Shown here piece after piece: positions 10,616 to 62,640 of a DNA stretch of 64,000 nt; position 1 is the stretch's first letter, and every line of letters begins with the position of its first letter. The notes below the pieces were generated by a model. It had not been told where the DNA came from, made no database searches, and saw only the letters and a program-made list of their open reading frames with translations. Location: IMG/VR virus record IMGVR_UViG_3300045988_048443; one strand, 5' to 3'. Made by a program: the position numbers and the translations under genes. The DNA is from a virus.

Positions 10616-13177
10616 ATGACTGGAAAAATTAAAAGAAGAAGTCTTCGTTGTGGTGGTAGACCTAAAGCTGACTTCGGTAGTATTTTTACTACATTTATTG
10701 CTCCTGCTTTAGGTGTTGCTGGTTCTGTAGCAGATTCTGCTATAAGTAAAGCTCAAGTTTCAAAGAGCAATACTAAACCAGCTGTTAAAGAGACTAATAC
10801 AGAAGTTACTAATAACAATAATGCTTCTGTTGAAAATCTTCCTACTACTCAAGCTCCTACTAAAGAATCAATTAGCGGACTTGTTACTAGTAATACTATT
10901 ATTCCTCCTGACCCAACTAAAACTCCTGCTATGAGATTAGGCGGTAGAAAGAAATGTTGGATTGGTGCAGCTATTATGGGTGCTACTAGTATAGCAGGTT
11001 CTTTATTTGGTGCTGCTGCTCAAAAAAGAGAAATGCGTCGTCAAAAGAATATTCAAGATTGGCAGAATACTACTCAAGAAGCTGCTAATATGACTTCTGT
11101 TCTTAATAATAGTCAAGATTATCAAGAAGATTATCTTAGACAATTTAGAACTGCTGCTAGACTTGGTAAAACTCTTGGAGCTAAAGGTATTTATATTACT
11201 GATGGTGGAGATGCTACCAAGATAGGAAACAACACATACCTTCTACGGGGCGGCTCTCATGAAGATGTAAATGAGACTGGTCAAACAGGTATAGGTATCA
11301 ATGTTGGTGGTAACGAAGTTGAGGCTGAAGGCGGTGAAGTTGCTCAGAAGAAAAATGGTGCTCTAAGAATCTTTAGTGCTCAACCTATTCTTGGTAATGG
11401 TATGAGTCCTGCTCAAGCTATTCTTAGAGGTTATAATAAAGATTCTGTATTTAGTCAACAACAAGCTTTTAAGAAAAGAAATGGTCTTAAAGATGATGGT
11501 AGTGCTAAATATGGACTTGGTGGAGACATAAAAGGTATTTGGAACTTTATTAGAAGTTATAGAACTCCTGTTAATAACATTGCTGCTCTAGTTACTGCAT
11601 ATCAAAAATTAAATCCTAATAGTAACTATAATAAACAAAAAGGTAAGTTCAAAGGTGGTACTTTTAGAGGTGCTGGTGCAGGTGGTACTTGGACTAACGA
11701 TTATAAATCTAATAAAGGTTTCGATAACTTTAATGATGCTTATGATGACGCTGTAGAACATAATGCTAAAACTTTTATTTTTGGTAATAAGAGATATAAT
11801 ACTCTTAAAGAAAATAATCCTATTAGAGAAATTAATAATAGAGCTGTAGGTTCTTGGAGAGATAGTGTGGTTACTAAAGATAGAACTGGTTATGGTAAAG
11901 ATTTTGGACCTATAAAAGGTGGTGCTTCTTTGATTCCTCTAATTACAGAAACTTACAATCCTAAGAGAATTAAACATAAATTAGGTGGTGGTTTAACTTC
12001 TAAAGATAGAGGTTCTTCTAAACATCCTTATCCTTCTGTATCATCTAAAGATTTTGCAGGTAGTGGTAGAAGTTATCCTATTCCAACTAAAGCTGATGCT
12101 GTTGATGCTTTAAGACTTGCAGGTCTTCATGGAAGAAGTGATGTTAGAAGTAAAGTATTTAGTAAATATCCTAGTCTTAGAAAGAAAAGTTCGTTAGGCA
12201 GCTATACCTCCCCTGTAAAAGACATGAGACCTAAAGCTGGTACTGGTATGTATATTCCTTTTAATAAACGTTATACTTCTATTTATGATGCTCCAGATTA
12301 TGATTATGATTATAATGGTGGTAATGTTTTAGGTAATAATGAAGTAACAGTTACAGCTAAGAGAATTAAGCCTACTTTTATGAAACCAAATAATGATGCT
12401 ATGAATCTTATCAAAGTTCCTAAAGAAGAAGTTCCTTATATTCCACAACATCATAATCGTAGTCGTACTATATTTAGTGGTGGAGATTATTTAGGATTAG
12501 GTATTGATACTCTTGCTGCATTAAGTACAGGTCTCGTAAATTATAATACTGCTGGTAAGTATACTCTTCCTGATAGAGCTCCTATCATTCAAGCTAGTAA
12601 ATTACCTACAACTTATAATGTTAATCCTGAAATAGAAGAGGTTAAACGTTATAGAGATAGACTTACTGGACAAACTTTCAATAATACTTCAAGTTCTGTA
12701 GCTGCTCTTAATAGAAGTGGTGCTATTAATCTTGATGCTCTTTCTAATCTTAGTAAACTTTGGGCTACTAAAGAGAATGAAGAGAACAAGATGCTTACAG
12801 AAGATGCTAAGAATCAACAAACTGTTGCAGCACAAAATGTACAGAATGAACTTGCTCGTCAAAGTGAAATTGCTAGAATTAAAAATGAAGCTATTCAAGC
12901 TAAGGGTGATGCTCTTAATGTTGGTCTTAGTGGATTGTCTCAAGCTTGGACTAATTTCTGGACTGCTGGTAGAACTGCTTATGAAGATGACCAAGCTAGA
13001 CGTGCAATGGTTGCTTCTAGTAAAGATGCTACTCCTACTAGACTTATTGAAATGGGTTATGACTTATCTCCTGACCTTGTAGCTAGTCTTTATAGAACTG
13101 CTAAAGATGATAGAACTAAACGTTTCTATTTGTCTAGATTGTCTTCTGCTCAAAGACAAAGATACGGTATAAATTAA
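10616..13177 (+). CDS. Putative internal virion/ejection protein (853 aa) with Gly-rich hydrophobic segments and a C-terminal coiled coil
   Basis: Hydrophobic Gly/Ala-rich stretches (IFTTFIAPALGVAGSVADSAI; WIGAAIMGATSIAGSLFGAAA). Repeated basic-x-GG motifs. Q/E/A-rich helical C-terminus. Lies upstream of the RNAP block. Confidence 0.45.
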   Translation: MTGKIKRRSLRCGGRPKADFGSIFTTFIAPALGVAGSVADSAISKAQVSKSNTKPAVKETNTEVTNNNNASVENLPTTQAPTKESISGLVTSNTIIPPDPTKTPAMRLGGRKKCWIGAAIMGATSIAGSLFGAAAQKREMRRQKNIQDWQNTTQEAANMTSVLNNSQDYQEDYLRQFRTAARLGKTLGAKGIYITDGGDATKIGNNTYLLRGGSHEDVNETGQTGIGINVGGNEVEAEGGEVAQKKNGALRIFSAQPILGNGMSPAQAILRGYNKDSVFSQQQAFKKRNGLKDDGSAKYGLGGDIKGIWNFIRSYRTPVNNIAALVTAYQKLNPNSNYNKQKGKFKGGTFRGAGAGGTWTNDYKSNKGFDNFNDAYDDAVEHNAKTFIFGNKRYNTLKENNPIREINNRAVGSWRDSVVTKDRTGYGKDFGPIKGGASLIPLITETYNPKRIKHKLGGGLTSKDRGSSKHPYPSVSSKDFAGSGRSYPIPTKADAVDALRLAGLHGRSDVRSKVFSKYPSLRKKSSLGSYTSPVKDMRPKAGTGMYIPFNKRYTSIYDAPDYDYDYNGGNVLGNNEVTVTAKRIKPTFMKPNNDAMNLIKVPKEEVPYIPQHHNRSRTIFSGGDYLGLGIDTLAALSTGLVNYNTAGKYTLPDRAPIIQASKLPTTYNVNPEIEEVKRYRDRLTGQTFNNTSSSVAALNRSGAINLDALSNLSKLWATKENEENKMLTEDAKNQQTVAAQNVQNELARQSEIARIKNEAIQAKGDALNVGLSGLSQAWTNFWTAGRTAYEDDQARRAMVASSKDATPTRLIEMGYDLSPDLVASLYRTAKDDRTKRFYLSRLSSAQRQRYGIN
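11233..11256 (-). repeat. GC-motif copy (reverse orientation) inside a CDS
   Basis: The reverse complement reads GAGCCGCCCCGTAGAAGGTATGTG. In the host gene it encodes L-L-R-G-G-S. Confidence 0.85.
12207..12226 (+). repeat. Decayed GC-motif copy inside a CDS
   Basis: CCTCCCCTGTAAAAGACATG, compared with CCGCCCCGTAAAAGGTATG at 15351. Same reading frame, giving S-P-V-K-D-M. Confidence 0.4.
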
Positions 13178-13189
13178 TATTATATAAAT

Positions 13190-13222
13190 ACTTCTGATAG
13201 TACTATTACTATCAGAAGTTTT
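13190..13222 (+). terminator. Rho-independent terminator
   Basis: Perfect 13-bp stem: ACTTCTGATAGTA (13190-13202) with TACTATCAGAAGT (13207-13219). The loop is 4 nt and is followed by TTTTACTATTTTT. Confidence 0.8.
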
Positions 13223-13224
13223 AC

Positions 13225-13232
13225 TATTTTTG
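13225..13232 (+). promoter_or_regulatory. Candidate Bacteroidetes-type -7 box (TAnnTTTG)
   Basis: TATTTTTG lies 26 nt upstream of the ATG at 13258, directly after the terminator. Confidence 0.3.
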
Positions 13233-13257
13233 TAATCAGTAATTAAATAATAATATT

Positions 13258-14490: not shown

Positions 14491-16440
14491 ATGCTTAGTA
14501 AAAAAATATATGATAAATTTATAAGTGATGGAGATTTTGTTGGTGCAGCTAATTATTTATCTCGTGCTCACTTTAGTGACCCAGTTAAACAACAAATGGT
14601 TAATCAAACTATTAAAAGTCTTAGAACTGATGGTCGTAGAATACAAGGTATGATGTCTCATGCTGATGATATTCAAAAAGCTGCATATAGTTTTCTCAAT
14701 GCTGTAAATAATAATAATGTTCTTCCAGGTCTTAATAATGGTATAGATTCTGAAGGTAATAGACGTAAAAGTACTAATGGATTTAGTAAAGCTTATTCTG
14801 ACGCTTTAAGAAATTTAGGTAGTACAAAAACTACTGATGCTGAAGGAATATCTATTAAATTTGGTGGTAAGACTGAAAAAAGAACTTTATTTGGTATTGA
14901 TTGGTTAGCTAAAGATGTAGAATATAACGATGATGCTTTTAATGATATGTTGAAACGTACTCATCTTACTAAAGAAGCTTTAATAAAAGCTGGTGCTAAG
15001 ATTAAAGTTCAAAATGGTCAATATATTCTTGATATTAGTAAACGTAGTTCTTTATTTAATAAGATATACGATGGTATTCGTAATATTAAAAACGATAAAG
15101 GTTTATATAGATTTCAAATAGCTGGAGTTGACGCTAAAGGTAATATAATAAAAAATAATGAAAGTTATCGTCCAGCTTCTGCTATGGAAAGAGGTGAACT
15201 TAAACATCAAGGTGTTAATGTTGCTACAAGAGTTGGAGCTTCCTCAAGTCCTATAGAAGAATCAGATGGATATTACTTTAATCCTAGTGTTTCGATGATT
15301 AATAATTTTGAAGCTCCAGCTAAAACTATAGAAAATGCCAATCAAACTATCCGCCCCGTAAAAGGTATGAGTGGTGATGGAAGTGAAGTATCTACTGTTA
15401 GTTCTATGATTCTTCCTTTTAATAGTGCTCGTAGAAAACAGATTAGTGATGCTCTTAATACTGGTAGACTTAATACTGAATTAGCTAATGCTTTAGTAAA
15501 AGAGAATGGTAATGCTATTCTTAATGGTCTTATGAATGCTGATTTTACTCAATATGAAATGTATGTTACTGATGAGGAAAATCCTGATGACCATACTACT
15601 GTTCGCCATTCAGTAGATACTAGTAACGAAAAAGCTAATATTCAAGATTTATTACGTGCTGCTATTGCTAGTGGAAAGTTTGACCCAGAAACTCAAGTTT
15701 CTCTTGGTATGCAAGGTAATCAAACTGGTTATGTTATTACTATTCCAACTAAGATGGATAAGAATACAGAAACAGGTAATAGAGTTGAAGATATTAAAGA
15801 GAATAGTCGTCAAATATTTATTCCTGATTTTATGAATGGTGAAGCTGAGAAACTATTCTCTCAAAATTCTCAGACTAGAGCTATGAAAGAACTTGCTAGT
15901 ATGGAAATGTATAATTATCCTGTTGATATTCCTCAAGATGGTAGACTTAATGTTTATAATGACCCTTCTACAGGAAAGGCAGTTTATCAAATGGAATATG
16001 ATAGTGGTAGAGTACAATCTTTAACTAGAGATGATGCACTTCGTAAAGTTAATAAAATGCTCATAGTTGAAGATGGTATTGATTTAGCTAATAAACAATT
16101 TTATGATGAAGATGGTAATCTCCGTAAAGGTCTTAAAAATAAAGATGGTTCTTTAAATGCCCAATTTCAACAAGATTTAAGTAGACAAATAGATACTTAT
16201 GTTACTAGTGCTATGAGTGAACTTTATCCACAAGCTTGGCAAAGTTTTGCTCCTATTGCTAATAATGTTATAAATGGAGATTTTTCATCTGAAGAATATA
16301 AGACTAAATTAGCTAAAGCTATGGATAGTTTTGTAGATACAGATAATATTAATCTTATTAATAATCAAAGAGCTATTTATTCTAATTATATTCTTAGTAA
16401 TATAGGAATGTATGATAATGATGCTTATAACATTGATTAA
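14491..16440 (+). CDS. Putative internal virion protein (649 aa)
   Basis: Long ORF tightly packed between neighbours (6-nt and 2-nt gaps). No motif recognised. Confidence 0.5.
   Translation: MLSKKIYDKFISDGDFVGAANYLSRAHFSDPVKQQMVNQTIKSLRTDGRRIQGMMSHADDIQKAAYSFLNAVNNNNVLPGLNNGIDSEGNRRKSTNGFSKAYSDALRNLGSTKTTDAEGISIKFGGKTEKRTLFGIDWLAKDVEYNDDAFNDMLKRTHLTKEALIKAGAKIKVQNGQYILDISKRSSLFNKIYDGIRNIKNDKGLYRFQIAGVDAKGNIIKNNESYRPASAMERGELKHQGVNVATRVGASSSPIEESDGYYFNPSVSMINNFEAPAKTIENANQTIRPVKGMSGDGSEVSTVSSMILPFNSARRKQISDALNTGRLNTELANALVKENGNAILNGLMNADFTQYEMYVTDEENPDDHTTVRHSVDTSNEKANIQDLLRAAIASGKFDPETQVSLGMQGNQTGYVITIPTKMDKNTETGNRVEDIKENSRQIFIPDFMNGEAEKLFSQNSQTRAMKELASMEMYNYPVDIPQDGRLNVYNDPSTGKAVYQMEYDSGRVQSLTRDDALRKVNKMLIVEDGIDLANKQFYDEDGNLRKGLKNKDGSLNAQFQQDLSRQIDTYVTSAMSELYPQAWQSFAPIANNVINGDFSSEEYKTKLAKAMDSFVDTDNINLINNQRAIYSNYILSNIGMYDNDAYNID
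15351..15369 (+). repeat. GC-motif copy inside a CDS
   Basis: CCGCCCCGTAAAAGGTATG, encoding I-R-P-V-K-G-M. Confidence 0.85.
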
Positions 16441-16442: not shown

Positions 16443-19400
16443 ATGAATACAGAAAACGTTTTTAATAATAGTGGAGTTATAGTTAGTAATCCTAATTATA
16501 ATCCTAAAACAAAGAATGGTCGTGCTCAACAGCCCTTCTTTCATACTTTAGATGTAAGTCAAGATATTACATCTGGTGCAGCTAATGAATTTGCAAAGAA
16601 CGCAGACAATGCTTTTGTAATGGGTGATACTCATAGTTATCAACGTTATGGTGTTACTCCTAATATTATTACTAATCTTGATAAAGAGCGTGCTGAAGCA
16701 CAATCAAACTTTGCTAAAACATTTAATTCTTTAGGTCAAGCTCTTGTTAGTGAAACAATTCTTGGTACAATTAAAGCTGTACCTGATTTGTTTGATGCTA
16801 TTACTAATGGTATATTTCAATCTGATGGAGATTACCAAAATCCTATTAGTAATAAACTTCAAGAATGGCAAGATTACTTTAGAAATGAAGTTGCTCCAAT
16901 ATATAGTGACCCTACACGTAATGATATTTATAATGGAGGTCTTACAAATTGGGGATGGTGGACTAGTAATGCACCTAGTGTAATGTCTAGTTTAACATTA
17001 CTTCTTCCTAGTACTGGTATTGTTAAAGTTATTGGTTATCTTGGTAAACTTGCAAAGACTTCTAAGTTAGCTAGTATGACTAGAAATGGCATTAAAAGTA
17101 TTGCTGGCATAGATAGAGCTATAAATTCTAATAAAGAACTTAATGCTTTACAAAAAGGTATTAATAAAATTATTGGTAGTAATGGTATTGTTGTTGGTTC
17201 TGATGTAGAAAGTGCTGCTAGTAGATTTGCTAGTATTGGAGGAAATGCTCTTTTACAACGTACTATGGAGAATTATCAAGAAGCTCAAGGAGTATATAAA
17301 GATATGTATAATGAAGCTTATGATAATCTTAATAGAATGAATGCTCAACAATATCAAGCTTTTGTTAATAAGAATCCTGAACTACTTCAAGATACTGATA
17401 CTAATGATAAAGAAGCTGTTGCAAGACGTATTGCTAAGAAGTCTGCTGATACAGATTTCCTTATGAACTATAGTAATATAGTATTTGATGTTATTCAAAT
17501 GTATGGTCTTCGTAACATGTGGAAAGGTATTAGAAATTCTGATGCTGGTAGTGCTGCTGTAAGTAGAGCTGCAAGATTAGAAAAACTTAAAGTTGGTAAA
17601 ACTGCTGAAGAGTTTGAAAAATACTATGCTAATATAGGTAAAATGAAGAAAGCTGGTTGGTGGATTAAAGACCATGCTAAAGCTGAGAAACTTGTAATAG
17701 CTGGAGAACTTAGTGAAGGTATTGAAGAAAGTGTTAACTATATATCTCAAATGGATGGTATGAATGTTGGTAAACTTCTTCTTAGTGAACAAGATGCTGA
17801 CCATTCTCCTTTTGATAATCGTCTTCAAAAGTATCTTAAAAGTGGAGGACTTGCTGACTCTGCTTTTTGGGGTGTATTAGGTGGTGTTGTATTTCATCAT
17901 TTAGGTAGTGGTTTCGGACGTGTTAGACAAACATTTGAAGATAGAGCTAATAAAAAAGAAGATAAAACTACTGGTGAACAAGGAAAAGCTTCACCTTTTA
18001 GTATTAGTGAACTTGGTGAAACTAAGTCTCGTAAAGCAGATATTGCTCACTGGGGAAAAGATACTAATCTTTATATTGAAAGGATGAATAAAATTAATGA
18101 TGGAAAGAATCCTTTTGATAACGATAAAAACTTTACTAGTCCTGAAGAAAGTCAAGCTGCTAAAGAAGCAGCTGAAAATGATTTTATTACTACATTAGCA
18201 TTACGTGCTGGTCATCATGGTAATCTTGATTATTTAAAATCATTCTTACAAAGTGAAGAAGTTCGTAAAGCTATGGTAGAAAAAGGTGTAGTAAACGAAG
18301 CTGAATCTAAACAAATTCAAGCTAATAATGTTGCTAAAGTTGATGCTGTTTTGGACGCATATACTAAAGAACTTTCAGGTCTTATAGGTATTGTTCAAAA
18401 TAGAAATCATAATAAAAAAGAACCAGACCGTGTTCCTATTGAATATCTTCAAGAAATAGCTAGTGCTAATGTTGTTTATAATCAAAAGATAGCAAATACT
18501 AAAAATAAAGAACAAGTTGCAGATAATCTCATAAACACAGTTCTTAATGAAGAAAATATTAGAAGAGTTATTGGTCAAAATTATACTGGTGAGCAAGTAA
18601 AAGGTGCTGTTCGTCACGCTCTTGTAACTAATATGATTAGCGATTTGTATGCTAGAAAGAAAGACCTTATAGCTAAGAATCGTAAGACTATTAGCGACAA
18701 AGTAGCTATTGATAATATTAATCGTACTATCAATGAGTATAGCGATATGCTTTCTAATGATGAACTTCGTCTTACAACTGCTGTTATGCTTGCTAGTGAA
18801 AGAGACGAACAAGGCAATCTTGGACGTAATAGTCAAGACCCTTTAGCTAAAGCTTATGATGACTTATTTAGTGGTGTTGATGAAAAAGGTGTTCAACTTA
18901 CAGACGAAACTATTGTTCGTAATTTTGAAAAATTTGCTAAAGAAAATGGTCTTTCTAAAAGACTTGCTGAATTTGATAGTTCTAGTAATGTACTTAATCA
19001 AATCCAAAATGCTAATAATACTATAACTAGAATTAATAATCTTGTTAAAGAAGCAGATAAAGAAAAGAATAGTACTGGCGTTAAACTTTCTGACCTTATT
19101 CTTAAACAAGCTGAACTTGAACTTTCTCGTAAATATGACCAAGCTCAAGTTGTCAATAATGAGACAGACCTTGCTGCTGAACTTAGTTATAAACAAAACA
19201 CTATGAATGAAGCTCGTAAGAAAGTTGTTGATACTAGTTATAAGTATATTGATGATTTAGCTGATAAATATAAAGATGAGGAAAACGGTAATATTCGTGC
19301 AGCTGTAGATGCTTATTTTAACGATGAGCAAAATAATTTTGATGATGCTACTTCTTTCATGACTAATAAAGAAAGAGAAGCTTTTAAAGAAAGTCTTGAT

Positions 19401-39836: not shown

Positions 39837-39839
39837 AAT

Positions 39840-40473: not shown

Positions 40474-40640
40474 AGCGTTAAATAATGTTTAATAAACTAA
40501 CACTCAATATGTTACAACGTACCTATATAATATATAATACAGCATATTAATGTTAGTTGCTATGATTATCACTACAAAGATAAGCATTATCATCAGTATT
40601 ACTACTAATAATAAGTACTTTAACAATAGTTTAACCACTA

Positions 40641-40716: not shown

Positions 40717-40720
40717 CGTA

Positions 40721-47280: not shown

Positions 47281-47335
47281 AGCCGCTCACGTATTAAGTA
47301 AAGTGGAAATCTACCACATTTTCTACGGGGCGGCT
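47281..47335. repeat. GC-motif copy with a decayed inverted partner, forming a hairpin element
   Basis: The reverse complement of 47314-47335 reads AGCCGCCCCGTAGAAAATGTGG. The partner AGCCGCTCACGTA is at 47281-47293. AGCCGC (47281-47286) pairs with GCGGCT (47330-47335). The element starts 14 nt after the stop codon at 47350-47352. Confidence 0.75.
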
Positions 47336-49404: not shown

Positions 49405-49874
49405 CGTTTAGCTATTAATCTAAATATTACAACTTTATCTGGTTTACCTAGACGACCATGAGCATATTGAGCCATAGCACCAATATCATCAGTCTCTCTA
49501 GTTTGATACATTTTTGTAGGAGTTTTACAAGTATGAGTATCATAATCGTAATTAAGAGGAATATGAACAACATCTCTAAAAGGAATTAATTCATTTAAAG
49601 CATCATAATCTTCAGTACCATCATGAAAATCTACTTCACCATACGAAAATATATTATCACTATCCAAGTCAAAAGTAATACCACCTCTAGTTATAGTGAT
49701 AGCTTTACCTTTATCAAGTAAAGCTTCTTCTTTATCACTTATCCAAGTCATAAGAATACGAGTTTGTGATTTAATATTATTACCAACTTTCTCAGTATGG
49801 CAAATCACAGTCTGATAATCTTTTGAAATAGGCATCGGTATCACTCTTATCTTTTCTGTATCGGATTTCAACAT
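49398..49874 (-). CDS. Hypothetical protein; start uncertain
   Basis: The listed start overlaps the primase gene by 83 nt. Internal ATGs at 49835 and 49751 are alternatives. Confidence 0.5.
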   Translation of the reverse strand: MLKSDTEKIRVIPMPISKDYQTVICHTEKVGNNIKSQTRILMTWISDKEEALLDKGKAITITRGGITFDLDSDNIFSYGEVDFHDGTEDYDALNELIPFRDVVHIPLNYDYDTHTCKTPTKMYQTRETDDIGAMAQYAHGRLGKPDKVVIFRLIAKRW

Positions 49875-54090: not shown

Positions 54091-55506
54091 TTAATCGACA
54101 ATACAATAAGCATTATTATTATCAACTTTAACATTTCTATCAAAATCGTTAATTATTGTATGATTGATTGGAACAGCCCTATCTTCTAGTTTTTTCTCCT
54201 CTAACGTGCCTTTATAAAATAAGGTGTATAATAATACCTCATTACTGAAATGAACCTTAGAAAGCCTATAGAAATAGCTCTCAATAGTATCACATAAGGG
54301 AGAAGTGATTATAACCAAATCAATATCAACATCTAAAGACTTGTCAGGCGAAGCACCACAAGAAATTACATTTATCTTATGAGTGTTCATAAGTTTTTGT
54401 GCAAGTTTCTTTTGAGCAATAACACCTAGAAGTTTAGGTTGACCTTTCTTTGGACCACTCTTTACAAGAATAGGATTTCCATAATCATCTACAGCAGGAA
54501 CATTATCTACTTTATCATGGCAATTAGCACAAATTCTTTTACCAGATTTATCATTAAGATAATCAGTAACAAGATTAGCAAATTCACCATACTTGTTTAT
54601 AATGAGTATATTCTTGTCTGAATTGTTATTGACTATATCTAAGATATTACTAAGTTTATCTTTAGAACTAGCAAGTTTAGTACTACGTTCTCTAACAATA
54701 TTATAAATACTATCAGCACGTTCTTTAATAGCAGAAGGACTATAAAGTCTATCTATATCTCTATTAAATTCTGAAGACATATCTAGATGATTATCCCAAC
54801 CATTAGTACGAGCAATAGCATCACATATCATCATACTAGAACAATTAGTAACACTATTTCCTAATCGAGCATACTTAATATTATCAAAGTTACCAAATAT
54901 AGCTAGAGCAGTAGAAATTTCCCTATTATAATAGTTCATTTCTTTATCTAGTTCACTATCAGGTACTATAGTTAATCCTACCAAACACTCTTTTACGGGG
55001 CGGTTAGACCTAACTTCATCAATAACATTTTGACTAAAGTTACCAATACTAGGAGCAACAGTATAGAAATCATCCATAGTTTTACTATCTAGTAGCTTAT
55101 TGAGAATTACTAGATTAAACTTAGACTTTTCTATCATAGCTATATGTACAAAATGAAATATACTAGGATTATAAATTATAGTCAGTAGAGGACTATAATC
55201 ATTAATATGTTCAGCAGCATATTCAGTAGTTAAAATCCTAAGACTTCCATTATGTATTACAGTACGAAAAGAATTATTCCATACTTCATTGTTCAAAGTA
55301 GTTAAATAACTTTCAATACTACTTCTATCTGCAAAATCTTTCACAATAATAACAACACTAGTCGTAGGAGACTTATTGTAAAGTTGTGGAAGAATATAAA
55401 GCAGAGGTCTTAGAGCATCAAAAGGAGCAGGTATTACAAAAGTACCTATTCCTTTATTTAATCTCCAAACATCAACAGCATTTAAATAAACTTGTTCTTC
55501 TGTCAT
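54091..55506 (-). CDS. Helicase-like protein with degenerate motifs (tentative)
   Basis: 471 aa. The C-terminal LDVDIDLVIITSPLCDTIESYFYRLSKV resembles SF2 motifs V-VI. I could find no canonical Walker A (GxxxxGK[ST]). Confidence 0.3.
   Translation of the reverse strand: MTEEQVYLNAVDVWRLNKGIGTFVIPAPFDALRPLLYILPQLYNKSPTTSVVIIVKDFADRSSIESYLTTLNNEVWNNSFRTVIHNGSLRILTTEYAAEHINDYSPLLTIIYNPSIFHFVHIAMIEKSKFNLVILNKLLDSKTMDDFYTVAPSIGNFSQNVIDEVRSNRPVKECLVGLTIVPDSELDKEMNYYNREISTALAIFGNFDNIKYARLGNSVTNCSSMMICDAIARTNGWDNHLDMSSEFNRDIDRLYSPSAIKERADSIYNIVRERSTKLASSKDKLSNILDIVNNNSDKNILIINKYGEFANLVTDYLNDKSGKRICANCHDKVDNVPAVDDYGNPILVKSGPKKGQPKLLGVIAQKKLAQKLMNTHKINVISCGASPDKSLDVDIDLVIITSPLCDTIESYFYRLSKVHFSNEVLLYTLFYKGTLEEKKLEDRAVPINHTIINDFDRNVKVDNNNAYCIVD
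54986..55005 (-). repeat. GC-motif copy (reverse orientation), co-oriented with its host CDS
   Basis: The reverse complement reads AACCGCCCCGTAAAAGAGTG. It encodes N-R-P-V-K-E. Confidence 0.85.
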
Positions 55507-57776
55507 TATTCTTCTTCATTATCAAATAAACTATTATACATACCAAAGTTCTTCTTTAATAGAGCTTTTCCACTAAGAGTTTTATTCTTTGCATTACCTT
55601 TCTGATTAGGACTTATTCCAAGCTTAATAGGATTGATAATCTTGTAAGCTTCTTCATAATAATAAGCATAATTTATGTTACGCTCACTAATATTTTTATC
55701 ATCAAGTAAATTAAGAATTTGTACTGGTTTACCACTAGCTAAAACACTACGTTTACCAGTAAGTTTGTGTTCTTTCATAATCACAACTCCTCTAGTAGAT
55801 ACATAAAATCTAACATGAGGTTGACTACGAACTTCAACACGCTTTTCATCTACTACTTTTTCATAGACAACTTCAAACTGTTTACCAACATTTTGAGTTT
55901 TACAAAAATCAAGAACATCTTTATGATTACAAAGAGTTTCCATTACAGATGTACCATGAGCAAAATACTCAAATACAGCAGTAGCCACAATAGGCATATC
56001 ATAACCTTTTTTAAGGTCTTTGATATACTGCTTTGGGTCAAGAGCACCTTTATACTCAAGTTTATCGTTACTTTGAATATCAAAATAGTTATTCACATTA
56101 AGACTAACAAGCATCTTATAATGTTCATCATCAGCAGACATTCTATTAGTCTCATTCCATTCCTTACAAATTTGATTATAAACATCAATTTTATCATAAG
56201 GAAGCTTTATAACAATACCATCTGTATTAGCACTAACAACATGTATTCCGGCAAGTTCAAGAGATTCACAAAGAGTCATTGTCATTAACTGACCATTAAT
56301 AGTAACTCTCATTTGTGCAAGTCTATCATAAAGCCAATAATTTTCATAACCATATTTGCCATAAATAGCATTGATTACAATCTTTAATGCTTCAGCTGCT
56401 AGACTATTATGTACACCAGGAACTACAAAACCATCTTCATCCTTAGTATGTTTACACTTAACACGCGTTTGTTTAAAGTAATTTACCATGTTTACAAACA
56501 CCTTAGTATTAAGATGTTCAGGTACTACTTCATAGCTAATCATTATACTCGGATAGTAGGATGTATAATCATGATGAACATAAACATATTTATTAGTACT
56601 TTTAAGTATTACAGGCTTATCTTGAGTATGAATACCTCCAGTAGCTAGAGTATATGTTGTACCATAAAAATCTATTTCACGTACAAAACTATCTTTATTA
56701 GTTCTATATATTACAACTTTCTTCATTTCTTCAAGTAAATCTTGAAGTTGTTTAGTCTTAAACTTAATATGAGGAAATATAATACGTTTAAACGATAAAG
56801 CAGTTCGTTGAGTACGAAGATTTTTAAAAGCATCTTCTTTAAGTCCACTACGTTCAGAATAGAACTTATTAAGAAGTTTATCAGCAATATTACTTCTAGC
56901 ACTACATAGAAGATTAAGTTTAAAAGCATGACCTAGACTATATCTAAGTTTAATCTCATCAGGTTTTTGTCTAGCTATCTCACAAACAAGAAATACATCA
57001 TTCTTATTATAATGAAGCATAGGCTTTATATATTTAGGCATAAGATACCTATTAAAGTCAGCAACAAACAAATGATTTAATTGTTCATTAGTCATACCTT
57101 TATATTCATCTTTTTTCCTATATACATCACCTTCTTCATCATCTATTGGAGGTAACTTAAAATCAAGAAGATTATACCATTTAAGATTAATACTAACTTG
57201 CTTCAAACTTTTACCATACTTCTTACGTTCACCAGTATCTTTATCTACATTTACTCCAGCAGAATTAAGAGCATAAACTTTAAACAAATCAACAGTTACA
57301 TAAGGTAATCTATACTTACGAATAACATTAAGTAGAGGGTCATTCCATAAAGCGTCTTTATCATCTTGTAGAGATATTAGTTTATTATTCACTTCTTTAA
57401 GAAATGAACAAAGTTGTTTACTAGTATCAAAACGATTCCAATACATAAGGAAAGCTCTAGTCATCATATCATCATAAGCTTGATTGTTATAGCCAAATAA
57501 ATCATATCTGTCTACAGTACCATCATCTTTAGTTATAGGACGCATCTTCTCAAAGAAGTCTATCAGTTCTAACATCTGTGAATCATCTGTATCAGTAACA
57601 TAAAATATCCAACTCTTTACACTATCAAGTCTAGACTTAATTTCTTCAACTGTTAAAGTATCAGTTAAAGCACCTTTACAATCTGCAAATTTATCAAGAT
57701 AATCTCTAACATCTACAAAAGTAAATGAAATCATATTCTCAAATACTTCTAAGTCTACAGCTAAACTATGAATCAT
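55506..57776 (-). CDS. Family B DNA polymerase
   Basis: Exo I VDLEVFEN. Motif A DYTSYYPSIM (DxxSLYPS). Motif B KIVINAIYGKYG (KxxxNSxYG). Motif C SANTDGIV (DTD). Confidence 0.85.
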   Translation of the reverse strand: MIHSLAVDLEVFENMISFTFVDVRDYLDKFADCKGALTDTLTVEEIKSRLDSVKSWIFYVTDTDDSQMLELIDFFEKMRPITKDDGTVDRYDLFGYNNQAYDDMMTRAFLMYWNRFDTSKQLCSFLKEVNNKLISLQDDKDALWNDPLLNVIRKYRLPYVTVDLFKVYALNSAGVNVDKDTGERKKYGKSLKQVSINLKWYNLLDFKLPPIDDEEGDVYRKKDEYKGMTNEQLNHLFVADFNRYLMPKYIKPMLHYNKNDVFLVCEIARQKPDEIKLRYSLGHAFKLNLLCSARSNIADKLLNKFYSERSGLKEDAFKNLRTQRTALSFKRIIFPHIKFKTKQLQDLLEEMKKVVIYRTNKDSFVREIDFYGTTYTLATGGIHTQDKPVILKSTNKYVYVHHDYTSYYPSIMISYEVVPEHLNTKVFVNMVNYFKQTRVKCKHTKDEDGFVVPGVHNSLAAEALKIVINAIYGKYGYENYWLYDRLAQMRVTINGQLMTMTLCESLELAGIHVVSANTDGIVIKLPYDKIDVYNQICKEWNETNRMSADDEHYKMLVSLNVNNYFDIQSNDKLEYKGALDPKQYIKDLKKGYDMPIVATAVFEYFAHGTSVMETLCNHKDVLDFCKTQNVGKQFEVVYEKVVDEKRVEVRSQPHVRFYVSTRGVVIMKEHKLTGKRSVLASGKPVQILNLLDDKNISERNINYAYYYEEAYKIINPIKLGISPNQKGNAKNKTLSGKALLKKNFGMYNSLFDNEEE

Positions 57777-58335
57777 TTATTAATTTAATTATTTCCATTC
57801 CATTATAATTATTATCTTTATTAGCAGTAAGCCATTTAACTAGACGATTACGAAATTCATCGTATTTAGTATCATCTATAAACTTAATAAAAGGAGAGTA
57901 ATTTGTACTATAAACATAAGGAGCTATATAATATAGTTTATCTTTACCTTTAGTAATATCAAAACCAAAATTAGTAGCAGCATTACCAAGAAGCATTATC
58001 TTCTTGATATTATTAATTCTAATATCAGCAAATGTATGAAGCATACATCTATTAGCTATATATTGATTTACAGGACAACGTTCGTCAAGCTTACAACGGA
58101 TAAGAGGAACAATATAGGGGTCTAGTTGTTCTAGACCCCCCGTAAGAGATGTGATAGTTTCCTTTACTATTTCCACATACTTACTAAACGTCATTCCTCT
58201 ATTCTTATAAGCATTGTAATCAACATTAGGTACAACAATAATCATACCTGACATTGGATTACCAATACCATCAAAACATTTGCACTTAGTATTAAACATA
58301 CCTAAAGCACAATTATCACATACTTTAGGAATCAT
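57766..58335 (-). CDS. Uracil-DNA glycosylase superfamily-like protein (divergent family 4-like)
   Basis: The N-terminus (CDNCAL...GIGNPMSGMIIVVPNVD) parallels the family-4 UDG layout C..C.L...G.G....lmivGEaPG, but the catalytic residues are diverged. The gene is adjacent to the polymerase gene. Confidence 0.4.
   Translation of the reverse strand: MIPKVCDNCALGMFNTKCKCFDGIGNPMSGMIIVVPNVDYNAYKNRGMTFSKYVEIVKETITSLTGGLEQLDPYIVPLIRCKLDERCPVNQYIANRCMLHTFADIRINNIKKIMLLGNAATNFGFDITKGKDKLYYIAPYVYSTNYSPFIKFIDDTKYDEFRNRLVKWLTANKDNNYNGMEIIKLINDS
58136..58153 (+). repeat. GC-motif copy (C6 variant), antisense to its host CDS
   Basis: CCCCCCGTAAGAGATGTG. It encodes S-L-T-G-G-L. Its C-run also pairs with GGGGTCTAG at 58117-58125. 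Confidence 0.85.
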
Positions 58336-58467: not shown

Positions 58468-58863
58468 TTAATCTTTACTAGGTTCAACATAATCTTCTAC
58501 TTTATCATAATGATTAACATTATAATTGTCATAAATAGAAGCACTAAACATGTATATATTATCACGTTTACCCCAAGTTTTATCTAGTTTACGTTTGTAG
58601 CCATAAACACTAACTCTACCATCAACAGTGGCATCAATTTTAGCAACTTTATAATATTGACGTTTAAGACCCCAAGCATTATTATTTTCAGTTACATAAA
58701 CATCACCAACTTTGATTGGGCAATTAGCAAGAATATCAGCACATGCTTCTTCATTAAGAGCTTTCATGTTATTTTTATATTCAGCTTCTATTTCTTCCTT
58801 TTTACTAATGTAACATTGAACACGTTCATTAAAAGAAAGTTTACTAGGTGGATTACAACACAT
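58468..58863 (-). CDS. Hypothetical protein
   Basis: 131-aa ORF. Confidence 0.55.
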   Translation of the reverse strand: MCCNPPSKLSFNERVQCYISKKEEIEAEYKNNMKALNEEACADILANCPIKVGDVYVTENNNAWGLKRQYYKVAKIDATVDGRVSVYGYKRKLDKTWGKRDNIYMFSASIYDNYNVNHYDKVEDYVEPSKD

Positions 58864-58943
58864 TTTATTTAATATTTTAATTTTTAATTGAGCGCATCAA
58901 ATAATTTTCGTGATTAATTAATCGACTAAACTATTCAAATCGC

Positions 58944-59276
58944 TTAAAACTCAACGAAATTGTCATCTGATGAATTTGGTATCACTTCAATGTTCCATTC
59001 TGCCAGCGAAAACTCAACACTTTCATAAACATAATCAGGACGAATAACAACACCTTTATGATAATTACCATCAATAACAACAATAGTAGCATCTAAGAGA
59101 GTACCGATAACAGTACGACTATTATCTTTTTTGGTTAACTTTACAGTATCACCAAGGTTCAAATCATTTTCATCAAGAATACCATTAGATATAGTATCTT
59201 TAATTCTAGCTACATCTTGTTCTTTTTGTTTAAGAACATGAACTAGTCTAACAAAGCTATTATTATCAATATCCAT
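58944..59276 (-). CDS. Hypothetical protein
   Basis: 110-aa ORF overlapping the helicase gene end by 11 nt. Confidence 0.55.
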   Translation of the reverse strand: MDIDNNSFVRLVHVLKQKEQDVARIKDTISNGILDENDLNLGDTVKLTKKDNSRTVIGTLLDATIVVIDGNYHKGVVIRPDYVYESVEFSLAEWNIEVIPNSSDDNFVEF

Positions 59277-60759
59277 ATCTTAAATATACTTTTTCTTTAG
59301 CTCTACTAACAGCAACATAAAGTCGCTTATTAATATCACTAGCATTAGTGTATGGTCTACCATATTTATCATAAACAATATCCATAACATCTACCATGCT
59401 TACATTATAAGTTGAGCCTTGCGATTTATGACTGCTTATTGCAAAACCATAATCTAAATCTCTATAATAAAGAATAGAACCATCAGGTCTACCAATATTA
59501 ACAAGAAGAAGACATGATTCTTTAAATTTATAATAAGCTTTCCATTTAGAAGCACGAATATCTTTACGAGCATTCTTAGCTTGTTGAATTAAATCATCAG
59601 CAATTTTACAATACATAGCCATAGTATATTTATCTCTATGGTCTATAATAAATAATGGAGAAGTAACTTGACCACCAAATACAGCTTGAAATTTAACCAT
59701 GAAACCTTTAAGCTCATATTGTGGATGAGTATAATTAGCTATCTCTTTTACAATATAATCTTCACTATTCTGAATAATTGCATCATTAAATTGGTCAACA
59801 ATAGTAACATAAGAAGTAATTAAATCATTCTTAGTAATAACAGATTTTTCACTGTCTTTAATTATACTTTCTCTAATAAATTTATTCCAATTAGAAACAG
59901 CTTTATTAGTATAAGATATAACTTTAACATAATCAGTATTACGAGTAATTGCTTCATCGCTAAATTGTTTCACAACTTCTTGTTGAAATTGAGCAGAATT
60001 ACAAACTACAAATCCTTTAGTCATAGTATTATCAAATTTACTACGATTACGAGATATATAATTTAGGAAGTTAAAAGTTCCATTATAAACATCACCACGA
60101 AGAAGTTCAGTAAGAGTTCTTATAGGATTATCTTCATCTTGTCGTACAATCTGTGTAAGTCTGAAAGATGTAACGCCTTTAAAAGCATAACTATCCTTCT
60201 CATTTACGGGCGGGATTTGTGCATCATCACCACATAGTATAAGTTTAATACTATACTTCTTCATCATCTTATCAATATAAGTAACAAGACTACGATTAAG
60301 CATAGAACTTTCATCTACTATATATAGACGATAATCTTCAATCTTTATACGACCATAAGAAGCAAAAGTAACATTATTAATATCAAACTTTTCAATATCA
60401 TAATTAGGTTTAAAACCAAAATCAGATTGAATAGTATTAACATTACAATGAGTACCTCTAATACTATTTTTAAGAACTCTACAAGCTTTATGACTTGGAG
60501 CACTTAAACCTATTTCAGAGAATGGTATATTACAATCTTGAAGTAAAGCTTTAAGAAGAAAAGTTTTACCAGTACCACCAGGACCAATTAAAGCACGCTT
60601 AAAATCTTTAGGATTATAAGGTTCATTAATAAACTTAATAAGTCCATTATAAGCTTTTGTTTGGTCATCTGTAAAAGTAAACTTTTTAGCTCTATCTCTA
60701 GTCATATTAGGAGTATTTATAGGTATAGCTCCAAATGTAAGTTCATCTTCATTGTGCAT
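59266..60759 (-). CDS. SF1 DNA helicase (Dda/RecD-like)
   Basis: Walker A GPGGTGKT. Walker B YIVDESSM. Motif III CGDDAQIPPV. Motif V SSHKSQGSTY. Motif VI LYVAVSRAKEKVY. Confidence 0.85.
   Translation of the reverse strand: MHNEDELTFGAIPINTPNMTRDRAKKFTFTDDQTKAYNGLIKFINEPYNPKDFKRALIGPGGTGKTFLLKALLQDCNIPFSEIGLSAPSHKACRVLKNSIRGTHCNVNTIQSDFGFKPNYDIEKFDINNVTFASYGRIKIEDYRLYIVDESSMLNRSLVTYIDKMMKKYSIKLILCGDDAQIPPVNEKDSYAFKGVTSFRLTQIVRQDEDNPIRTLTELLRGDVYNGTFNFLNYISRNRSKFDNTMTKGFVVCNSAQFQQEVVKQFSDEAITRNTDYVKVISYTNKAVSNWNKFIRESIIKDSEKSVITKNDLITSYVTIVDQFNDAIIQNSEDYIVKEIANYTHPQYELKGFMVKFQAVFGGQVTSPLFIIDHRDKYTMAMYCKIADDLIQQAKNARKDIRASKWKAYYKFKESCLLLVNIGRPDGSILYYRDLDYGFAISSHKSQGSTYNVSMVDVMDIVYDKYGRPYTNASDINKRLYVAVSRAKEKVYLRYGY
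60205..60214 (-). repeat. Decayed GC-motif copy inside the helicase motif III codons
   Basis: TACGGGCGGG; the reverse complement reads CCCGCCCGTAAATGAG. It encodes I-P-P-V-N-E in the same P-V frame as the other co-oriented copies. This may be coincidental, because PPV is a conserved helicase motif. Confidence 0.35.
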
Positions 60760-61589: not shown

Positions 61590-61895
61590 TTATATTTTCT
61601 TTATATCTTCTATATTACAATAAATATATGTAGTTTTATCTGTAAAACACATAACTCTTGGTGTTTTATTTCTATCTATTATTATTCTGTATATTACAGC
61701 ACCAATATGAGATTTTCCATAAATATTTTTATTTACATTACAGATAACTTTATCGTCTACTTGTAGAGGAATATGATTATCATTAAAGAATTTATTAGTT
61801 AAATTCTTAATTCTATTATTATAATCAATACGAGCAGTATCCGCTTCTTTAATAAAATAAGAAACAGTTTCTTCTTTAATATTTTCCATAATCAT
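61590..61895 (-). CDS. Hypothetical protein
   Basis: 101-aa ORF. Confidence 0.5.
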   Translation of the reverse strand: MIMENIKEETVSYFIKEADTARIDYNNRIKNLTNKFFNDNHIPLQVDDKVICNVNKNIYGKSHIGAVIYRIIIDRNKTPRVMCFTDKTTYIYCNIEDIKKI

Positions 61896-62215
61896 TAAAA
61901 TAAATCGTTTAATTTATATTCTTTTTCAACTTTATAATCAGTATGGTCTTGATATGAATAACCAATTAATATAACTTCATTATTTTCATTAATTCTAGCA
62001 CTAATTGGTTCAAAACGTACAGGAGTACAAACTATATCTATAGTTTTATTAGAAGTAATATTATTCTCTATAAGAATTTTTCTACCTACTTCACGCAAAC
62101 CTTTATTATAAGCTTCCATAAGTTTATTTTTAAACTTATCGTCATTACAATTATTTGCTCTACTTTTAAAATATTCAAAAGGAGCAATAGCTGTTATATA
62201 TTCTTCATATTTCAT
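61895..62215 (-). CDS. Hypothetical protein
   Basis: 106-aa ORF with a 1-nt overlap. Confidence 0.5.
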   Translation of the reverse strand: MKYEEYITAIAPFEYFKSRANNCNDDKFKNKLMEAYNKGLREVGRKILIENNITSNKTIDIVCTPVRFEPISARINENNEVILIGYSYQDHTDYKVEKEYKLNDLF

Positions 62216-62239
62216 AACTTTATTATTTTATTTATTAGG

Positions 62240-62290
62240 AGTTCTGCTTGGTTTCGCACCATAAGCCGTATTACTACACTTAGCAGAACT
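62240..62290. other. Intergenic hairpin (9-bp stem, 33-nt loop)
   Basis: AGTTCTGCT (62240-62248) pairs with AGCAGAACT (62282-62290). No T-run follows on either strand. It lies next to the GC-motif copy at 62303. Confidence 0.5.
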
Positions 62291-62298
62291 TAATTACT

Positions 62299-62640
62299 CT
62301 AGCCTCCCCGTAGAGAAGTTAGCATACAATTGTTTTCCTTTTCTAACTTATCACATATATTAAGTATGAAATTAATACCAGCATGTCTAACATCAATTAT
62401 ATCTTTAATTACAGTAGTCATATCATGCTGACTTAATCTCATAAGATAATATATAGTTCTAAAACCTCTACGAGTATTAAGAGGAAAGTTATAAGGAATA
62501 ACATAACCTTTACGTTTTGAAGAATGTTTATAAAAGTCTTTTTTATCAACATAACCATTACATTGTACAACTTCTCCAAAATCAGGTGGACAACAATGTC
62601 TTGTATCAAACTGATAAAGACAACTATTACATAGTATCAT
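62299..62640 (-). CDS. Hypothetical Cys-rich protein
   Basis: 113 aa. N-terminal CNSC...HCCPP...C cluster, possibly metal-binding. The C-terminus ...TSLRGG is encoded by a GC-motif copy. Confidence 0.5.
   Translation of the reverse strand: MILCNSCLYQFDTRHCCPPDFGEVVQCNGYVDKKDFYKHSSKRKGYVIPYNFPLNTRRGFRTIYYLMRLSQHDMTTVIKDIIDVRHAGINFILNICDKLEKENNCMLTSLRGG
62303..62318 (+). repeat. GC-motif copy, antisense, forming the last codons of a CDS
   Basis: CCTCCCCGTAGAGAAG. It encodes S-L-R-G-G-stop. Confidence 0.8.

Follow-up and report, generated by a model that had tools for sequence, protein, structure and literature searches.

We analysed a 64,000-nucleotide stretch of a crAss-like phage genome (IMG/VR record IMGVR_UViG_3300045988_048443; hereafter the window, meaning the whole stretch), which has a GC content of 30% and is organized into two gene arms, one on the plus strand (201-37531) and one on the minus strand (39228-63777). 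Its nearest named relative is cr8_1 (Fohxhuevirus, Obtuvirinae, Intestiviridae). Copies of a GC-rich word of about 25 bp are scattered through both arms, most of them inside protein-coding genes. The word represents a cis-acting DNA element found throughout the Intestiviridae, the crAss-like family that includes the prototype crAssphage (p-crAssphage); selection acts on the DNA word itself, and the proteins through which it runs have adapted around it.

A first-pass annotation of the window had listed twelve coding copies with their peptides; all twelve are present, and the translations of the host open reading frames (ORFs) match. The word recovered from their coordinates is TACGGGG[C/G]GG, or its complement, which is common to all twelve. 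On the G-rich strand (the G-form), the consensus of the window copies is CAYMYCTTYTACGGGG[C/G]GGCT(a)(g)a, and their alignment over about 25 bp reads CAYMYCTTYTACGGGGSGGCT(a)(g)a; the reverse complement (the C-form) is AGCCSCCCCGTARAAG. A pyrimidine tract is followed by (T/C)AC, a G-run and a purine-rich tail, giving an asymmetric unit of 21-27 bp that is not itself a palindrome, and its information content of ~35 bits is somewhat inflated because the position weight matrix (PWM) was trained on sequences chosen for TACGGGG. At a PWM score of 10 or more, 18 hits were found in the window, against 0.03 per 64 kb in Markov-shuffled windows, and 18 of the 20 ACGGG pentamers are part of the motif. 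In all, 19 copies lie in the window: besides the twelve already listed, there is a thirteenth, degenerate copy in coding sequence at 12217(-), and six are intergenic (3743-, 3783+, 37543-, 40649+, 40710- and 47324+). The weakest match is the copy at 60205 (PWM 11.6), other copies scoring 17-46. Thirteen of the 19 copies lie inside ORFs, and both orientations are present within each gene arm. Copies are enriched in non-coding DNA, which makes up 9% of the window and contains 6 of 18 copies (P = 0.004). In Rfam and tRNA scans of the window, only a tRNA-Gln (37691-37762) reached the gathering score, and the motif matched no Rfam covariance model. Two scans of 185,579 bacterial species with 19-20-mers, in which the short core alone was not scanned, gave 0 and 3 matches, a chance level that rules out a host repeat or a CRISPR-like element.

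The evidence that the word itself is under selection comes from relatives of the window. About 27 copies occur in the genome of cr8_1, and almost all of them have an orthologous counterpart in the window; this placement extends to a 2392-residue protein whose flanks are too diverged between the two phages to be aligned. Across 46 loci found via the UDG-like protein (UDG, uracil-DNA glycosylase), the copies in the UDG, helicase and primase genes keep their positions as UDG identity drops to 40%; the word is retained in loci with a UDG of 40-57% identity, and the tripeptide (S/F)-T-G at the UDG site is kept in protein homologues down to 34% identity. The word is also kept at orthologous residues where the host proteins are 34-45% identical, p-crAssphage included: the primase and SNF2-type helicase copies occupy identical residues in p-crAssphage and the window, and two copies in the RNA polymerase agree in their order, their frame and the type of peptide. 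At the C-terminus of a 113-residue protein, the site reads SLRGG*, FLYGAARE* or FSTGRLE* in different relatives (the two frames other than that of the window being used in loci L150, L124 and L143 and in loci L036 and L133), and the DNA word is kept throughout. Furthermore, the word forces the rarest codons of the genome. Outside the motifs, GGG accounts for 0.6% of Gly codons, CCC for 0.9% of Pro codons and CGG for 0.1% of Arg codons; 5 of the 11 GGG codons and 5 of the 10 CCC codons of window ORFs lie inside motif copies. The proposal of the first-pass annotation that the word is selected at the nucleic-acid level, with the protein adapting to it, is thus borne out by the orthologous positions, the three-frame site and the rare codons. 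Across the whole depth of the family, copies occupy orthologous positions.

Relatives across the family were retrieved by primase protein similarity. In a second homologue search, also made with the primase, the listed proteins were all at least 63% identical, and no outgroup was among them. Each genome carries 27-31 copies, on both strands, and each lineage has its own flavour that is common to all copies of a genome: GGGGSGGCT in the window; GGGGGAGCT, or in its longer form TCTTCTACGGGGGAGCT, in cr271_1; CTTTCTACGGGGGWGST in ctcc615; CTCCTTTACGGGGGAA in crAss002, where the word is also given as CCTTTACGGGGGAA; and tCCATCCTCYACGGGGRGT, also given as CCATCCTCYACGGGGRGT, in p-crAssphage, where the 31 copies account for 31 of the 32 ACGGGG hexamers of the genome. 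These flavours shift in concert at orthologous sites. A 30-mer BLAST search of 50,697 phage records matched only cr8_1, because the lineage-specific flavours hide the element. In crAss002 (L174), a second variant, TTTATGGGGGAA, with TAT for TAC, is repeated about six times beside the CTCCTTTACGGGGGAA copies. Outside the family, crAss001 (Steigviridae; L178, MH675552 1-50000) lacks the Intestiviridae word and contains YCTTCTGGAG 14 times in 50 kb, against ~0.2 expected, in both orientations, with a pyrimidine tract followed by a G-rich block and at a density near that of the Intestiviridae element; this repeat is possibly its counterpart in the Steigviridae. Although crAss001 and crAss002 are both phages of Bacteroides, their words differ.

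Along the plus-strand arm, the first two copies form a tight inverted pair in intergenic DNA, with a predicted hairpin of -35.7 kcal/mol; the left arm (3732-3752, minus; PWM 38.3) lies 15 nt past a stop codon at 3723, and the right arm (3774-3794, plus; PWM 38.5) lies 41 nt upstream of an ORF at 3824. An 853-residue protein of the virion/cargo module (10616-13177) contains a G-form sense copy (11235-11255, plus; PWM 46.0) encoding LLRGGS, whose orthologue lies at 29632 in cr8_1 and whose orthologous group has 17 members. The degenerate copy missing from the first list is in the same gene (12206-12226, minus; PWM 23.9); its letters are TACAGGGGAGG, also written CATGTCTTTTACAGGGGAGGTATAG, and it is C-form sense in the P-V frame, encoding TSPVKD, while its cr8_1 orthologue (27567, GESRPVKGMRR) is intact. 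The next copy, in a 649-residue protein (14491-16440), is C-form sense and encodes IRPVKG (15349-15369, minus; PWM 42.0); it is confined to close relatives of the window, in a 5-member group, and is oriented like the decayed copy at 12217. Two copies lie in T/E-rich, linker-like stretches of the 2392-residue protein (16443-23621), as had been noted before: a G-form sense copy with a G6 core encoding SSTGGL (20147-20167, plus; PWM 37.4), and a C-form sense copy with T at the degenerate core position encoding SHPVED (22446-22466, minus; PWM 32.0). The former has a cr8_1 counterpart at the matching relative position (residue 1212 versus 1238), with flanks that give no tblastx high-scoring segment pair. 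In the 4608-residue virion RNA polymerase-like protein (23705-37531), a G-form sense copy (26855-26875, plus) encodes SLYGAD and is orthologous to the cr8_1 copy at 13916; it matches ILYGGS at residue 825 of p-crAssphage gp44 in peptide type and frame, an orthology inferred from order and frame only. The second copy in this gene is C-form sense (30341-30361, minus; SRPVED), with an orthologue at 10512 in cr8_1 and with LPVEDT at residue 1539 of gp44. Beginning 1 nt past the stop codon of this ORF is an intergenic copy (37532-37552, minus) that is followed by a small GTAGAAG/CTTCTAC hairpin and has a syntenic cr8_1 copy at 3399.

The minus-strand arm contains a second tight intergenic inverted pair, orthologous to the pair 46/119 in cr8_1. 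One of its arms scores 44.2 (40640-40660, plus); the other (40699-40719, minus; TACGGGGAGG) falls below a PWM score of 10 because its left half is shifted by one base. The copy in a 216-residue DUF1599-like protein (44657-45307) is G-form sense (44922-44942, minus) and encodes PFTGGV, the peptide in most relatives being STGRVE, with C at the degenerate position. An intergenic copy (47315-47335, plus), 17 nt past the stop codon of the ORF at 47350-47706(-), has a degenerate partner near 47280, with a duplex of -19.6 kcal/mol. The DnaG-family primase gene (49792-51018) contains a G-form sense copy (50176-50196, minus; IFYGAD) at a residue position that is identical in cr8_1, cr271_1, crAss002 and p-crAssphage (ILYGGS). 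A 471-residue helicase, SNF2-like according to the annotation of relatives (54091-55506), has a C-form sense copy (54985-55005, plus; NRPVKE), to which a copy at the equivalent position of p-crAssphage gp17 corresponds (residue 165, LPVEEY). In the gene for a family-4-like UDG (57766-58335), the copy is G-form sense (58133-58153, minus; SLTGGL); here a local hairpin, GGGGTCTAG-aacaa-CTAGACCCC (58100-58153), unique among the coding copies, is partly conserved in cr8_1 as GGGGCTAG..CTAGTCCCC. The marginal copy TACGGGCGGG lies, C-form sense, over motif III (QIPPV) of a PIF1/RecD-like superfamily 1 (SF1) helicase (59266-60759; copy at 60196-60216, plus), and the last copy is the C-terminal site of the 113-residue protein (62299-62640), where it is G-form sense (62301-62321, minus) and encodes SLRGG*, with the stop codon within the CTAG of the motif.

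How did the word come to lie in so many unrelated proteins? The first-pass annotation had considered insertion of a small mobile GC-rich element, citing Rickettsia palindromic elements and the GC clusters of yeast mitochondrial DNA. Those elements also act at the nucleotide level and lie in frame inside unrelated proteins of AT-rich genomes; the word is likewise GC-rich in a 30% GC genome, its tight inverted pairs resemble miniature inverted-repeat elements, and several copies occupy lineage-specific insertions in variable loops. In p-crAssphage, the PolB site is inside an insertion of 18 residues, the two sites of the tail-tubular protein are in insertions of 13 and 23 residues, and the ligase site is in an insertion of 3 residues, in agreement with the expectation of lineage-specific indels in loops. 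For the UDG, by contrast, the difference from the siteless p-crAssphage UDG is 0-3 residues, and for the SF1 helicase it is zero. Moreover, Rickettsia and yeast elements are palindromic, mobile, polymorphic among close relatives and always insertions, whereas single copies of the present element are asymmetric, occupy orthologous positions across subfamilies without polymorphism, and have often arisen by substitution only. The PolB loop of crAss002 carries a longer insertion and is yet motif-free, loop length varying regardless of the motif; copy-and-paste insertion leaves the concerted flavour changes unexplained; and no target-site duplications were noticed, although no systematic examination was made. 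A mobile element is therefore largely excluded and, in our estimation, has only the slightest chance of being the explanation. The sites are ancient and positionally stable, not mobile, and some arose by substitution alone.

The copy at 60205 illustrates such an origin. It lies on conserved core residues of the SF1 helicase, motif III, GDxxQ(I/L/V)(P/A/S)PV, without any indel, and relatives encode these residues with CCT CCT GTT; CCG CCC GTA occurs only in the subclade of the window, and the copy exists only because CCT CCT became CCG CCC by synonymous change. The first-pass annotation had itself named such an outcome as refuting insertion, and the synonymous origin speaks for selection on the DNA. 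As to protein structure, the idea that the copies would map to loops held for the primase (AlphaFold2 model, pLDDT 78), where the copy is in the loop between helix 262-274 and strand 287-291, and held in part for the UDG (pLDDT 89), where it covers the end of helix 52-65 together with the loop 66-73, the least confident internal segment of the model. The sites settle where the forced peptide is tolerated, that is, at helix ends, in loops and linkers and at C-termini, sometimes in extra loop residues.

The reading frames of the copies must be considered with the genetic code in mind. It had been pointed out that the five copies co-oriented with their host genes (C-form sense) use a single frame (15351 RPVKG, 22447 HPVED, 30343 RPVED, 54994 RPVKE and 60205 PPVNE), and this is correct. 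However, the GTA[A/G] of the C-form gives TAA or TAG in one sense frame and leaves only two open, so that five of five copies in the same frame gives only P = 0.03 (one-sided). The antisense copies (G-form sense) do use all three frames, as LRGG (11244 and 62303), TGG(L/V) (20156, 44925 and 58136) and YGAD (26864 and 50178); that they are always Gly-rich is uninformative, because the GGGG run encodes at least one Gly in any frame. The constant Gly and some of the frame uniformity stem from the genetic code and do not reflect selection. To this extent the claim of a non-random frame fit falls away, but a real bias persists across relatives. All copies in the window, cr8_1 and 166 IMG/VR loci were assigned to their covering ORFs and grouped, approximately, by flanking protein similarity into 41 orthologous coding site groups. 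Among the C-form sense groups, R-P-V outnumbers P-P-R-K/R by 15 to 2 (P = 0.001), and the G-form groups comprise 11 YG(A/G), 12 (S/F)TG(G/R) and 4 LRGG, which is not significant. In p-crAssphage, P-V-E-D is found six times, T-P-R-G three times and the third frame never; in some copies of that phage the third C-form frame is open because CAC replaces TAC. The suggestion that core variation tracks the frame was accurate for the window, whose three TGG copies are its three G6 cores, and in the wider set amounts to a trend: G is the majority base at the degenerate position in 9 of 12 TGG-frame groups and in 14 of 31 other coding groups (Fisher P = 0.075). A G in place of C at this position turns Arg (CGG) into Gly, and the G7 cores of cr8_1 occur in every frame and in intergenic DNA.

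Copies last only in tolerated frames, the TAA/TAG frame being impossible and the P-P-R-K/R frame largely avoided, and in the TGG frame G (Gly) tends to supplant C (Arg) at the degenerate core position. Together, the rules of tolerated position and tolerated frame account for the frame pattern that was first observed. A comparable accommodation by proteins is known from the uptake sequences (USS/DUS), which Findlay and Redfield (Genome Biol Evol 2009) reportedly described within coding regions of Pasteurellaceae and Neisseriaceae. Like the present element, these are DNA words selected at the DNA level within genes (hundreds, in the case of USS/DUS), with a frame bias towards tolerated peptides and preferential placement in poorly conserved parts of proteins. 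Unlike it, they are 9-12 nt long, cellular and driven by an uptake machinery, and they show irregular spacing, no deep positional conservation and another orientation pattern.

In the three genomes examined for spacing and orientation (the window, cr8_1 and p-crAssphage), the sites follow one another at regular intervals of 2 to 8 kb, with about one site per 3.3 kb. Gap lengths have a coefficient of variation of 0.42-0.51, where random placement gives 0.91-0.95 (P <= 0.0005), and the largest gap is 7.5-8.1 kb, against an expectation of ~14.5 kb. Orientation alternates between neighbouring copies in 14 of 17 cases in the window (P = 0.006), 22 of 27 in cr8_1 (P = 0.0008) and 22 of 31 in p-crAssphage (P = 0.015). 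Copies in the same orientation are never closer than 2.08 kb, and all 12-14 neighbour pairs less than 1 kb apart are inverted. Each orientation class is regular by itself, and this is sufficient to produce the alternation. With ~90% of the genome coding and a site required at intervals of a few kilobases, also within ORFs of 7 and 14 kb, two thirds of the copies run through genes. Two cases of turnover have kept the orientation: the 12217(-) copy decayed and the 15360(-) copy is new in the window while cr8_1 retains the older site, which looks like site turnover preserving orientation; and a copy at -1866(-) from the UDG start is replaced elsewhere by an intergenic copy at -476 or -570(-). In place of the motif III copy (60205), other genomes have a likewise oriented intergenic copy at a distance of 1.3-1.4 kb. 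Intergenic copies often form tight inverted pairs, with long predicted hairpins of up to -43.8 kcal/mol. The deposited linear record of cr8_1 both starts and ends (1-119 and 92613-92668) within the tight inverted pair 46+/119-, its termini overlapping by 55 bp; the probable cause is that assembly broke at a G8 run or hairpin, the alternative being a real end. By hand count, ~14 loci have an end no more than 150 nt from a site, where ~10 would be expected.

What, then, reads the element? That flavours change in concert, that the word is absent from host genomes and that phages sharing a host genus use different words all suggest a phage-encoded reader; the orientation rules suggest polar action; and the need for both orientations everywhere points to a machinery that crosses regions in both directions, that is, to replication or recombination rather than transcription or packaging. 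The reader would be a phage-encoded factor that co-evolves with the element and acts on DNA strand-specifically. Our best inference, held with low confidence, is accordingly a signal for the replication machinery, and we offer only tentatively the somewhat wider view that the element is a strand-specific (polar) DNA signal that is probably read by the replication or recombination machinery.

An unlikely alternative is that the copies are sites for a double-stranded-DNA-binding protein that organizes or regulates the whole genome, as operators of a global repressor or as nucleation sites for a spreading or sliding protein, with the tight inverted pairs as high-affinity dimer sites. The length, asymmetry and information content of the element, and its genome-wide flavours, recall the co-evolution of operator and repressor or of parS and ParB; the tight inverted pairs do lie in intergenic DNA; and a maximum gap of ~8 kb would fit nucleation with a limited spreading range. 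Similar systems are the stoperators of Cluster A mycobacteriophages (L5 gp71 sites) and the C1 operators of P1, which are asymmetric, lineage-specific sites in ~20-35 scattered copies that co-evolve with their protein, some P1 operators forming inverted 'bivalent' pairs. Stoperators, however, are 13-14 bp long, nearly all intergenic and oriented with transcription, whereas two thirds of the present copies are intragenic and far from promoters, with both orientations within one arm and regular spacing. A non-polar site gives no reason for the alternation or for the lack of close same-orientation pairs, although a similar pattern could arise if direct repeats were avoided because they invite recombination. 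The phage-plasmid lifestyle reported for p-crAssphage (PMC10983915) needs genome-wide control; no candidate protein was identified. IHF/HU-like virion proteins were rejected as the reader, as the crAss001 structural atlas lacks the terms IHF, DNA-binding and histone.

The form of the element, a conserved block of ~20 bp ending in a TA step and followed by G-rich sequence, resembles that of T7-type promoters, and we considered whether the copies could be promoters of a phage RNA polymerase, with a ~13-bp upstream block, the TA step and an initially transcribed GGGG(A/C)G. T7-group promoters have ~23 bp, ~35-40 bits, 15-30 copies, lineage variants and a G-run right after the TA step, and in length, information, copy number and lineage variants the element resembles the T7, T3 and SP6 promoter families. 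In p-crAssphage, 9 of 12 intergenic copies are sense-directed, and the divergent pair 95745-/95870+ lies exactly at the junction of the divergent gene arms. Promoters of this group are, however, intergenic and co-oriented with the genes, whereas two thirds of the present copies are in ORFs and ~40% would fire antisense; in addition, most solitary intergenic copies of the window and of cr8_1 are antisense, directed back into the gene that precedes them. We regard this explanation as decidedly improbable. In the crAss-like phage phi14:2, early transcripts made by the virion RNA polymerase do not share an upstream motif, and middle promoters are of a sigma-70-like type (bioRxiv 10.1101/2020.03.07.982082); a virion RNA polymerase promoter was rejected as a candidate, since that study found no motif for the enzyme.

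Alternatively, the element might act at the RNA level, G-form and C-form copies pairing within a polycistronic transcript as processing sites, stabilisers or terminators. This idea is largely excluded and, to our minds, very improbable. It would accommodate the hairpins of the intergenic tight pairs and the tendency of solitary window copies to run from G-form to C-form in transcript order, but for the solitary coding copies local complementarity does not exceed chance, the small hairpin at the UDG copy excepted, and pairing between partners 2-4 kb apart in translated ORFs is implausible. Both orientations, moreover, occur in mRNA, and the motif has no Rfam match. Canonical hairpin-plus-T terminators are a separate class: between 36.5 and 48.5 kb there are 14, against 2.6 expected, and none contains the motif. 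In a scan of 1-12 kb, the single match (3776-3791; 1 against 3.2 in shuffled sequence) is a weak 6-pair stem inside the copy at 3783. The motif was thus rejected as an intrinsic terminator, solitary copies lacking a hairpin and canonical terminators being separate. The terminators cluster on both strands at the convergent arm junction (37850-40964), at 37850-37880+, 37961-37928-, 38660-38631-, 40466-40442- and 40964-40932-.

Among signals for DNA metabolism, the element could be a phage-private counterpart of Chi that modulates a phage helicase-nuclease (a RecD/PIF1-like helicase with a PD-(D/E)XK nuclease and RecT), so that marked DNA would be spared or recombined and unmarked DNA degraded. 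Like Chi sites of RecBCD/AddAB, the copies are G-rich and polar, often lie in genes and have both orientations interleaved at kilobase-scale density, one per ~3.3 kb being similar to Chi densities. The phage encodes an SF1 helicase and a Mu Gam-like protein and, according to the annotation of relatives, RecT and an exonuclease; the crAss001 analogue holds CTGGAG, which resembles GCTGGTGG; and the absence of the motif from the bacterial genomes scanned would suit a private signal. The same absence, and the difference between phages of one host genus, separate the element from known Chi sites, which are defined by a host enzyme and over-represented in the host genome. Chi is also only 5-8 nt long and is read as single-stranded DNA, whereas ~25 bp are conserved here; and mosaic breakpoints are not clearly enriched at the sites, about 2 of 12 strong ones lying within 100 nt of a site, against ~0.8 expected, in a crude test on 33 relatives, a result on which the idea of the sites as recombination linkers was also dropped. 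On balance, a Chi-like role seems improbable. Stoperators, P1 operators, Chi and T7 promoters each fail at least one defining feature that was tested. As to the mosaicism itself, segments of low identity to relatives that are otherwise 93-96% identical (61600-62300, 58500-58900, 55950-56870 and 48530-48910) suggest mosaic module exchange, and one mosaic boundary, at ~62297-62300 in both L124 and L129, falls together with the copy at 62312 and with the end of the gene.

Within the preferred reading of a polar replication or recombination signal, the most likely single mechanism, itself rather doubtful, would be a preferred start site for RNA primers, or a primosome-loading site, in lagging-strand synthesis. 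The conserved pyrimidine tract of 8-11 nt would template an all-purine primer, and the G-rich 3' flank would serve as a recognition anchor. Hybrids of purine RNA with pyrimidine DNA are the most stable type, and such a primer would be helpful because of this stability in a 30% GC genome. The tract ends in a DnaG-type initiation triplet, CTA or TTA in the window and CTG in the crAss001 analogue; as a pattern in the sequence, every window copy has YTAC before the G-run, and p-crAssphage has CTA or CCA. Primase and single-strand initiation (ssi) signals, such as the CTG/CTA of DnaG and ssiA/ssiB of RSF1010, are likewise strand-specific and needed on both strands, with a triplet that ends a pyrimidine-rich template, and ssi sites are also long, specific and paired on opposite strands; they differ in being structured hairpins clustered at an origin. 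A weak link with replication is seen at the divergent arm junction, where the clusters of motif and motif-like (TTGACGGGGG) sequences are densest; in p-crAssphage, this cluster (95745-, 95870+ and 85-) lies beside repL and the published OriFinder origin prediction. A motif-like variant with G before A (CTTGACGGGGG) occurs twice in cr8_1 (64499-64551), in the gap at the divergent arm junction, as well as at position 85 of p-crAssphage, near repL, and at position 530 of the crAss002 locus, and may be an origin-associated form.

Several points weigh against a replication signal of this kind. Known primase sites are 3-5 nt long and not ~25 bp, the known properties of DnaG do not explain the conserved G-rich tail, and no primase is known to use a dispersed site of ~25 bp. 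To neither side of the origin predicted for p-crAssphage does one orientation significantly outnumber the other (8:8 and 5:10). GC and AT skew show no zigzag between sites that would mark alternating replication or transcription, the skew following gene orientation only; and under the priming model the '- +' pair at the arm junction of p-crAssphage would give convergent priming, a geometry unlike that of an origin. The alternation, too, is imperfect: up to four '-' sites occur in a row in the structural arm of p-crAssphage, and the count for the window drops to 14 of 18 if the decayed 12217 copy is included. Orthologous sites make the three genomes non-independent samples, and in the frame survey singleton groups may be unmerged orthologues.

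In its widest form, which we advance as a possibility and with some doubt, our proposal is that the Intestiviridae possess a genome-wide 'punctuation' code, probably with an analogue in the Steigviridae (YCTTCTGGAG), in which a polar element of ~25 bp would be required on each strand every ~6-7 kb, would be read by the phage replication or recombination machinery as primer starts or as a phage-private Chi, and would have been kept in place since the origin of the family, dictating rare codons, loops and C-termini in dozens of proteins, among them proteins of the human gut virus that is most abundant. No description of such an element was found in the searchable full-text literature, including searches with the sequence words, and neither the phi14:2 RNA polymerase paper (bioRxiv 10.1101/2020.03.07.982082) nor the p-crAssphage phage-plasmid paper (PMC10983915) mentions it. 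For a dispersed, polar cis-element that lies within genes, its length, regularity and depth of positional conservation are unusual, and the family that carries it is the most abundant among human gut phages. It offers a concrete, testable handle on the DNA metabolism of crAss-like phages, whose replication and packaging mechanisms are poorly known, a clean natural example of overlapping codes, with the evolution of proteins visibly constrained by a signal in the DNA, and a lineage-diagnostic marker. Annotators and protein modellers should be aware that STGG, YGA and RPVE peptides in these phages are by-products of the DNA word, and recoding or engineering these phages would require the sites to be kept.

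Three further observations were made during this work. In cr127_1 (Crevaviridae, 25% GC; L179, NC_055886 1-40704), a GC-rich element of 40 bp, aatGGCCACAAGGGCGAGAGGTGTTCCGAAAT, occurs in six copies (1767-, 11357+, 11910-, 19697-, 28696- and 28872+) that include two inverted pairs. The IMG/VR contigs 3300045988_068777 (125.7 kb), 3300045988_037651 (124.8 kb), 3300045988_064312 (167 kb) and 3300029413_000001 (222 kb) carry the replication module and motif sites and far exceed the ~95 kb of a crAss-like genome, and may be concatemeric or chimeric assemblies. Finally, the DUF1599 protein ('nucleotide modification associated domain 1', 44657-45307) adjoins thymidylate synthase and dUTPase (43686-44651 and 39228-39836), a grouping that hints at a modified base in the phage DNA.

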